This document shows, piece after piece, positions 61,010-61,642 of a stretch of DNA of 64,000 nucleotides. Position 1 is the first letter of the stretch; each line of letters begins with the position of its first letter. The DNA lies in the sequence record ON871820; one strand, given 5' to 3'. The notes below the pieces were generated by a model. That model saw only the letters and a program-made list of their open reading frames with translations. It was not told the DNA's origin and did no database searches. The position numbers were made by a program, and so were the translations under genes. The stretch comes from Escherichia phage vB_Eco-B1.1.

Positions 61010-61225
61010 ATGAAACGTAAAACTGTTCAGAAATGCACTAATGACGAATTTGAAGATGTATTATTCGATCCAGATTTGGTAGTGGTTCAAAAGGAACACA
61101 CCATTAAGTTTACTCACTTGACTTCGGTTTATGTTTATGAAAAGGTTGGTGATAAACAGCCAATTTACGGCGTATTTCGTGAAATTACTGAAGATGGCAC
61201 AACTTACTGGAAGGAAATTTATTAA
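61010..61225 (+). CDS. cef: Cef-like protein
   Basis: 71-aa ORF at the T4 cef position. Confidence 0.45.
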
Positions 61226-61383
61226 TGGCTATTAGATTTGAAGTTAATAAATGGTATCAATTTAAAAATAAACAAGCTCAAGAAAATTTTATTAAAGACC
61301 ATATTAATAACGGAATTTATGCGCGCCGTTTAGGTATGTATCCTTTTAAAATTTTAATAGGACGCCCAAGAGCGTCCTATTAA
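61225..61383 (+). CDS. 52-aa ORF ending inside an 18-bp hairpin (goF region, upstream part)
   Basis: TAATG start; stop TAA 61381 in hairpin arm 2. Confidence 0.4.
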
Positions 61384-61389
61384 AATTTT
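61348..61389 (+). repeat. perfect 18-bp inverted repeat with 6-nt loop
   Basis: AAAATTTTAATAGGACGC-CCAAGA-GCGTCCTATTAAAATTTT. Confidence 0.9.
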
Positions 61390-61642
61390 GTCATCTACTG
61401 GAAATTTAGTACTATCTCCTGATAAAGATGTTTTGGATGAAGACTTTATTTGGCTTTCAAAAAGTGAAGCTGGGTTCTTTGATGAAGTTGAAAATCCATA
61501 CCAGGCAGCTGAAGAACAAGAGCAGGAAGAGCAAGAACAAATAGAAGATTTCACAGAATTCCCGGTAATGAAAGTTACTATTGAAAATAATGAACAAGCA
61601 TGGTCCTTGTATCAGATGTTGAAAGCACACTTTAAGGAATAA
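61388..61642 (+). CDS. acidic ORF with no ATG start (goF region, downstream part)
   Basis: frame opens at 61361; TTG 61388 is the first candidate start. Confidence 0.35.

Follow-up and report, generated by a model that had tools for sequence, protein, structure and literature searches.

A perfect hairpin in goF of Escherichia phage vB_Eco-B1.1 is probably the product of a quasipalindrome template switch

Here, we analysed a perfect 18-bp hairpin located within the goF gene of Escherichia phage vB_Eco-B1.1. We interpret the hairpin as the product of one Ripley-type quasipalindrome template switch in a Tequatrovirus goF gene, and as a real in vivo allele that is null for goF, with a probability of roughly 0.8. 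That the sequence pattern, taken by itself, was made by a template switch is very nearly certain. The mechanism is already well known, and the goF allele is a new natural instance of it. Ripley was the first to propose template-switch frameshifts in quasipalindromes, in 1982, to explain mutations in the rIIB gene of phage T4 (cited in PMC7202029). The goF allele provides an unusually clean natural example of this mechanism in the virus group of the original proposal: a 15-nt templated patch accounts for all 9 alignment columns that differ from a close relative, and the reciprocal outcome is found at the same site in an independent lineage. The window that was analysed is a stretch of 64,000 nt of the phage genome (record ON871820), and all positions given for it are those of the whole stretch.

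The first-pass annotation of this DNA had reported a perfect 18-bp inverted repeat at 61348-61389, and the report was accurate: the two arms of 18 nt are 100% complementary and they are separated by a loop of 6 nt. Such a repeat is beyond chance. Among the perfect short-loop inverted repeats of the 64-kb window, the goF palindrome is the longest, the runners-up having arms of 13 and 12 bp, and none of 100 simulated windows from a first-order Markov model contained an arm above 14 bp, against 18 bp at goF. Folded as RNA, the hairpin has an energy of -23.6 kcal/mol (z = -8.0 against shuffled sequences). The second-longest perfect inverted repeat of the window, at 60868-60910, lies upstream of cef, with 13 bp in each arm and 17 nt in the loop. 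There is also a perfect inverted repeat at 4587-4627, with 12-bp arms that contain TTGACT and with TGGTATAAT in its loop.

The palindrome is located at the junction of two open reading frames that together cover the goF locus (Table 1). The 52-aa frame ends inside the second arm, at a TAA at 61381-61383. The 84-aa frame is in the +1 register; it is open from 61361, after the stops TAA-TAG at 61355-61360, and its first start-type codon is the TTG at 61388. This TTG has no Shine-Dalgarno sequence, and the next in-frame ATG is found at 61568. The assignment of both frames to goF was correct, as was the length of about 141 aa given for the T4 protein. Both match parts of one GoF-containing family, phrog_622, and each corresponds to one half of GoF in the alignment; the T4 gene has 426 nt and encodes 141 aa, while the closest relatives encode 139 aa. 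The relatives annotate the gene order cef - goF (comC-alpha, mRNA metabolism modulator) - 39.2, which is kept in the window, and the DNA of the goF locus is 99.2% identical to that of the relatives. An intact GoF frame of 134-141 aa is absent from the window, where the gene is split into 52 aa and 84 aa by a -2 frameshift.

Table 1 Features of the goF locus of phage vB_Eco-B1.1 in the 64,000-nt window.
Feature	Position	Strand	Description
goF (comC-alpha) pseudogene	61225..61642	+	418 nt, against a continuous 420-nt ORF (139 aa) in relatives; alignment with T4_ev240, W143, Sf21, PP01 and T4; phrog_622 match
5' goF fragment ORF	61225..61383	+	52 aa, of which the first 44 are native to GoF and the last 8 (IGRPRASY) are out of frame; ends at TAA; phrog_622 positions 2-41
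3' goF remnant, +1 frame	61361..61642	+	84-aa ORF from TTG 61388; phrog_622 positions 55-132
cef, intact upstream neighbour	61010..61225	+	PF24050 T4_Cef; annotation of relatives
gene 39.2-like zinc-ribbon protein, intact downstream neighbour	61645..61821	+	PF09723; annotation of relatives
Palindrome, left arm	61348-61365	.	AAAATTTTAATAGGACGC; pairs with the right arm at every position, as its reverse complement; 20 nt in the ancestral form, AAAATTTTAGATGTGGACGC
Palindrome, loop	61366-61371	.	CCAAGA; reverse complement of the TCTTGG loop of relatives (spacer inversion)
Palindrome, right arm	61372-61389	.	GCGTCCTATTAAAATTTT; same as in relatives; with the ancestral loop, donor of the templated copy
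Replaced tract	61357..61371	.	ATAGGACGCCCAAGA (15 nt), the reverse complement of ancestral TCTTGGGCGTCCTAT; took the place of ancestral GATGTGGACGCTCTTGG (17 nt); net -2 nt

Related phages have a continuous goF. A search with the 831 nt around the site gave matches in 532 phage records, 500 of which have a single match over 80% or more of the query. No identical record was found among the matched phage records. The best matches over 24 kb are about 96% identical, which indicates a mosaic T4-like (Tequatrovirus) genome and not T4 itself. One continuous goF frame of 134-141 aa is present in about 500 related phage records and in all of the best 120 of 224 protein-cluster representatives. The comparison with orthologs, which had been suggested as a check on an inserted palindrome, was decisive: the gene is indeed split at the palindrome, but the relatives are continuous and 2 nt longer, and the palindrome is not an insertion.

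The closest relatives, T4_ev240 and W143, read AAAATTTTA-GATGT-GGACGC / TCTTGG / GCGTCC-TAT-TAAAATTTT at this site, which is an imperfect palindrome, while the window reads AAAATTTTA-ATA-GGACGC / CCAAGA / GCGTCC-TAT-TAAAATTTT, which is a perfect one. The ancestral form, AAAATTTTAGATGTGGACGC-TCTTGG-GCGTCCTATTAAAATTTT, occurs in T4_ev240, in W143, in other relatives and also in ENA contigs. The quasipalindrome was found in 28 records of the phage collection, of which 18 are exact (15 distinct phages), 8 have one mismatch and 2 are perfected. The ancestral allele persists in about 25 sequenced relatives. The loop reads TCTTGG in 10 of 12 distinct alleles and ATCTTGG in the other two (T4 and L023), and the CTTGG core encodes Leu-Gly in all 12. 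Since this core is kept in the other alleles compared, the CCAAGA loop of the window is the derived state. It is the exact reverse complement of TCTTGG, with the length of 6 nt kept.

The folding energy of the palindrome RNA is -16.9 kcal/mol for the T4_ev240 type, -10.4 kcal/mol for PP01 and -7.8 kcal/mol for Sf21, the palindrome at this position being much weaker in clades other than that of T4_ev240. The pairing of the inverted repeat rises stepwise by clade, from T4 (GCTGATTAT...ACTAAAATTAT) through L013 and L019 (GTGGATGCT...ATTAAAATTAT) to T4_ev240 (GTGGACGCT...ATTAAAATTTT), and the final two substitutions of this series both raise the pairing. Earlier templated events may have built the goF quasipalindrome.

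The derived tract can be reconstructed exactly from the relative. In the 833-nt segment of T4_ev240, TCTTGGGCGTCCTAT lies next to GATGTGGACGCTCTTGG. When the latter was swapped in silico for the reverse complement of the former, the product was identical to positions 61000-61830 of the window at 831 of 831 nt. At goF, the differences of the window from T4_ev240 and W143 are confined to the palindrome. In a pairwise alignment of 12.7 kb, the window and T4_ev240 are identical over 60843-62831 (about 2 kb) except for 9 alignment columns, all of which fall at 61357-61371; elsewhere in the 12.7 kb there are scattered SNPs, at about 4%. The features that characterise a template switch are thus found together at goF: an imperfect repeat in the relatives, a derived tract that is fully predicted from the neighbouring arm, a cluster of changes and an inverted spacer. 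In the motB-cef intergenic region, the poly-T run at 60833-60842 is 3 T shorter than in T4_ev240, and it is, besides the palindrome, the sole difference within 60436-62831.

In the proposed mechanism, the nascent strand would leave its template during DNA synthesis, in the outer stem (9 nt) or the inner stem (6 nt), which are the two microhomologies shared by the arms. It would then pair not with itself but with the complementary arm of another strand that has its polarity, either the other parental strand or the sister strand, copy through the mismatched segment and the loop, and rejoin its own template in the other microhomology. The switch points would correspond to AAAATTTTA/TAAAATTTT (61348-61356 / 61381-61389) and to GGACGC/GCGTCC (61360-61365 / 61372-61377). 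The outcome can be read from the alignment: 17 nt gave way to 15 nt that are the reverse complement of the sequence next to them, the arms became perfect (18 bp), the 6-nt spacer was inverted and 2 nt were lost. The frame is shifted by -2 nt because the mismatched segments measure 5 nt and 3 nt and the shorter one was copied. We infer that the nascent strand switched to another strand, since by simply folding back on itself it would have made the arms perfect yet kept the TCTTGG loop. Homogenised arms together with an inverted spacer are described as the signature of an intermolecular switch (PMC8604942; PMC8794818).

The same quasipalindrome has been perfected in the opposite direction in two other phages, GADU22 (OQ944321.1, L005 449-494) and KK4 (OR327750.1, L006 449-494). 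In both, the TAT of the right arm has become ACATC, the reverse complement of the left-arm GATGT, which adds 2 nt, and the loop is unchanged. The resulting palindrome is perfect over 20 bp and has an RNA folding energy of -31.3 kcal/mol, and the annotation of both genomes divides goF into two CDS. GADU22 and KK4 do not differ across the 945 nt fetched. With the window included, two independent perfecting events, one per arm, among about 25 related genomes suggest a mutational hotspot, relaxed selection on goF, or both, and the goF quasipalindrome looks like a recurrent mutational hotspot. The stronger proposal, that in this Tequatrovirus subclade it is a bidirectional, high-rate templated hotspot that serves as a recurrent off-switch of goF favoured under some host or propagation conditions, is unlikely. 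If it were true, the site would offer a natural system to measure intra- against intermolecular template switching in T4-type replication.

An unlikely alternative is that the switch took place in vitro, as a chimera of PCR or MDA, or that the hairpin was mis-assembled, and that the phage truly keeps an intact quasipalindrome. Polymerases also switch templates at inverted repeats in vitro, and an amplification switch or an assembly error would leave an identical signature. Moreover, the perfected allele of the window is known from one assembled genome and was absent from every collection searched: the phage collection holds no record of it (none above 95.1% identity), and neither the 52-aa nor the 84-aa product is on record in an exact look-up of a public gene catalogue. 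An exact-pattern scan of IMG/VR and JGI metagenome contigs gave 0 matches for any form (wild type, -2 or +2), with a pattern that does match the fetched loci, and a GoF-based locus search in IMG/VR returned 5 loci only, in which every goF is intact and the palindromes are weaker. A literature search for a goF palindrome, a goF frameshift or goF of GADU22 found nothing relevant. Against an artefact, a consensus call requires the same exact 15-nt replacement in most of the reads. The goF -2 is the sole frame-breaking indel inside an ORF over the 12.7 kb compared with T4_ev240, the other indels that are not multiples of 3 being intergenic, which argues against a generally poor assembly. Finally, the reciprocal event was found in two separately deposited genomes, and such alleles therefore do occur in deposited phage genomes.

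A history of two switches is improbable. In it, an intramolecular fold-back would have fixed the left arm, with the loss of 2 nt and the loop kept, and a later intermolecular event would have inverted the spacer. This order of events yields an identical end product, and it has parallels: in yeast, 9 of 10 spacer inversions affected long-armed inverted repeats that were perfect beforehand (PMC8604942), and in GADU22 and KK4 the arm was corrected with no inversion of the loop. However, two steps are less parsimonious than one, the flanks show zero extra divergence, and the intermediate AATAGGACGC-TCTTGG-GCGTCCTATT was not found in the phage records or in the viral and metagenome scans, with a pattern that is able to match. 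A single intermolecular switch is therefore preferred.

Frameshifted after residue 44, GoF ends at residue 52. In T4 GoF, the predicted LSm-like N-terminal domain comprises residues 1-91, and the two goF suppressor substitutions that are known, D25Y and G84R, lie within it (PMC12152347). The goF of the window is almost certainly a null allele, since the truncation falls within this domain and halves the predicted fold. Any product of reinitiation would miss the N-terminal half of the LSm-like domain (GoF residues 1-55). T4 phages with a goF deletion or with goF amber mutations have normal plating and a normal burst size (PMC12152347), and a 21-bp deletion in goF reached a frequency of 72% in a gut-on-a-chip evolution experiment (PMC9271167). 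Thus goF, an early gene, appears to be dispensable for laboratory growth and a broken goF to be tolerable, so that a broken allele could persist. The hairpin itself probably has no evolved function. In an ENA contig (ERZ22234280 NODE_7, L011 1716-2136), goF is broken differently, by the insertion of one G at nucleotide 73 (AAAGAC to AAAGGAC), and this is either another disrupted allele or an assembly error of the metagenome contig.

The first suggestions for the hairpin, namely an inserted palindrome, a regulated frameshift or bypass, and an RNA processing site, find no support at goF, and neither does a terminator. It is very improbable that the hairpin and the CCA-AGA context drive a +1 frameshift, or a bypass like that of T4 gene 60, from which full-length GoF would be made. 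The arrangement of the locus does recall such systems, since a GoF-like product of 138 aa would result from a +1 shift at any point of 61361-61380, AGGA sits 3 nt upstream of CCA, and GGA codons are found at 61360 (frame 0) and 61400 (+1 frame). However, the arrangement in two frames is not conserved, the goF orthologues being single ORFs, and it comes from a very recent mutation, given flanks of about 2 kb that are otherwise identical to T4_ev240. CCA-A is unable to re-pair in the +1 frame, which leaves no slippery codon for the P-site. With regard to bypassing, the GGA at 61360, which forms the sole matched pair with the GGA at 61400, is followed by CGC and not by a stop, and the TAT-TAA at 61378-61383 has no in-frame Tyr landing codon nearby.

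The view of CCA-AGA as a classic +1 slippery context with a rare AGA codon fails on both counts, as CCA-A does not re-pair and AGA is common: it makes up 121 of the 650 Arg codons in the long ORFs of the window and is the second most used. T4-type phages carry their own tRNA-Arg(UCU); a tRNA scan of the window itself found no tRNA gene. The CCA-AGA context is present because the loop was inverted, in one genome only.

Gene 60 had been named as a precedent for hairpin-dependent bypassing located just beyond the window, and it is probably not nearby. T4 itself has the split arrangement of genes 39 and 60. In the closest relatives (L009-L018), the region that corresponds to about 62530-64000 encodes an unsplit topoisomerase II large subunit, gp39, of 605-606 aa, and the gene of T4_ev240 has 1818 nt; the bypass element of gene 60 is therefore probably absent from this lineage. 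The bypass of T4 gene 60 and the +1 frameshifting of the prfB and Ty1 type resemble goF in that a hairpin stands at a two-frame junction where a +1 shift would restore the protein. Unlike in these systems, the arrangement at goF is not conserved, it lacks a slippery or hungry codon as well as a stop behind the take-off codon, and no nascent-peptide signal is known for it. It is a fresh mutation and not an evolved signal.

The weakest explanation, that a small mobile palindromic element was inserted in goF or that the hairpin is a selected regulatory structure such as an RNase III site or a terminator, is hardly credible: the stem is unusually long for the genome and stable as RNA, but the locus has lost 2 nt on balance, native goF codons of all relatives are homologous to the two arms, the window has no second copy, every database match is a goF locus, and the perfect 18-bp hairpin is found in one genome only. 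An Rfam search with the hairpin gave only chance-level matches (E about 0.7, far below the gathering scores), and a scan for terminators and promoters called no terminator-like site in 60700-62300 and nothing relevant. An apparent second place in the top BLAST matches was the same palindrome on the opposite strand, and not a paralogue.

Among known systems, the goF allele is closest to the quasipalindrome frameshifts of T4 rIIB (Ripley 1982, as cited in PMC7202029). They belong to the same virus group, an imperfect coding repeat is likewise perfected by the copying of an arm, and a complex change of several bases likewise gives a net frameshift. The rIIB cases are selected mutants, while that of goF is a natural or isolate-level allele with a 6-nt spacer inversion, and the reciprocal correction occurs in a different lineage. 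Intermolecular strand-switch correction (Rosche, Trinh and Sinden 1997; yeast REG2, PMC8604942) shares with goF the combination of arm homogenisation and spacer inversion and the explanation of a cluster of changes by one event (PMC8604942). Those cases are in-frame substitutions, in yeast, or come from plasmid reporters, whereas at goF the segments of 5 nt and 3 nt in the two arms led to a -2 frameshift that kills the gene. The hotspots of E. coli thyA and lacZ QP5/QP6 (Viswanathan 2000; Dutra and Lovett 2006; Seier 2011; as cited in PMC7202029) are, like goF, natural quasipalindromes with recurrent outcomes that can be predicted from the opposite arm. Their rates were measured in the bacterial chromosome, while recurrence at goF is deduced from two independent alleles among about 25 phage genomes.

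For annotation, the locus should be labelled as a goF pseudogene that was generated by a templated -2 frameshift; labels that imply a pair of small genes, recoding or a hairpin with a regulatory role should be avoided. The goF palindrome brings nothing new on translation or gene regulation. Clusters of changes of this kind can pass for hypervariable sites, recombination patches or positive selection, and the goF site could be used as a natural reporter of template switching in T4-type replication. Elsewhere in the window, an 8-bp inverted repeat, TCGTTTGG-TT-CCAAACGA, is found at 55047-55064, inside a modA-like ORF of 200 aa (54865-55467). The counterpart in T4_ev240 has the spacer AA in place of TT (Val to Glu), and TT is common to the window and six IMG/VR contigs. 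The AA spacer looks like a dinucleotide change by spacer inversion, which would be derived in T4_ev240 and not in the window.
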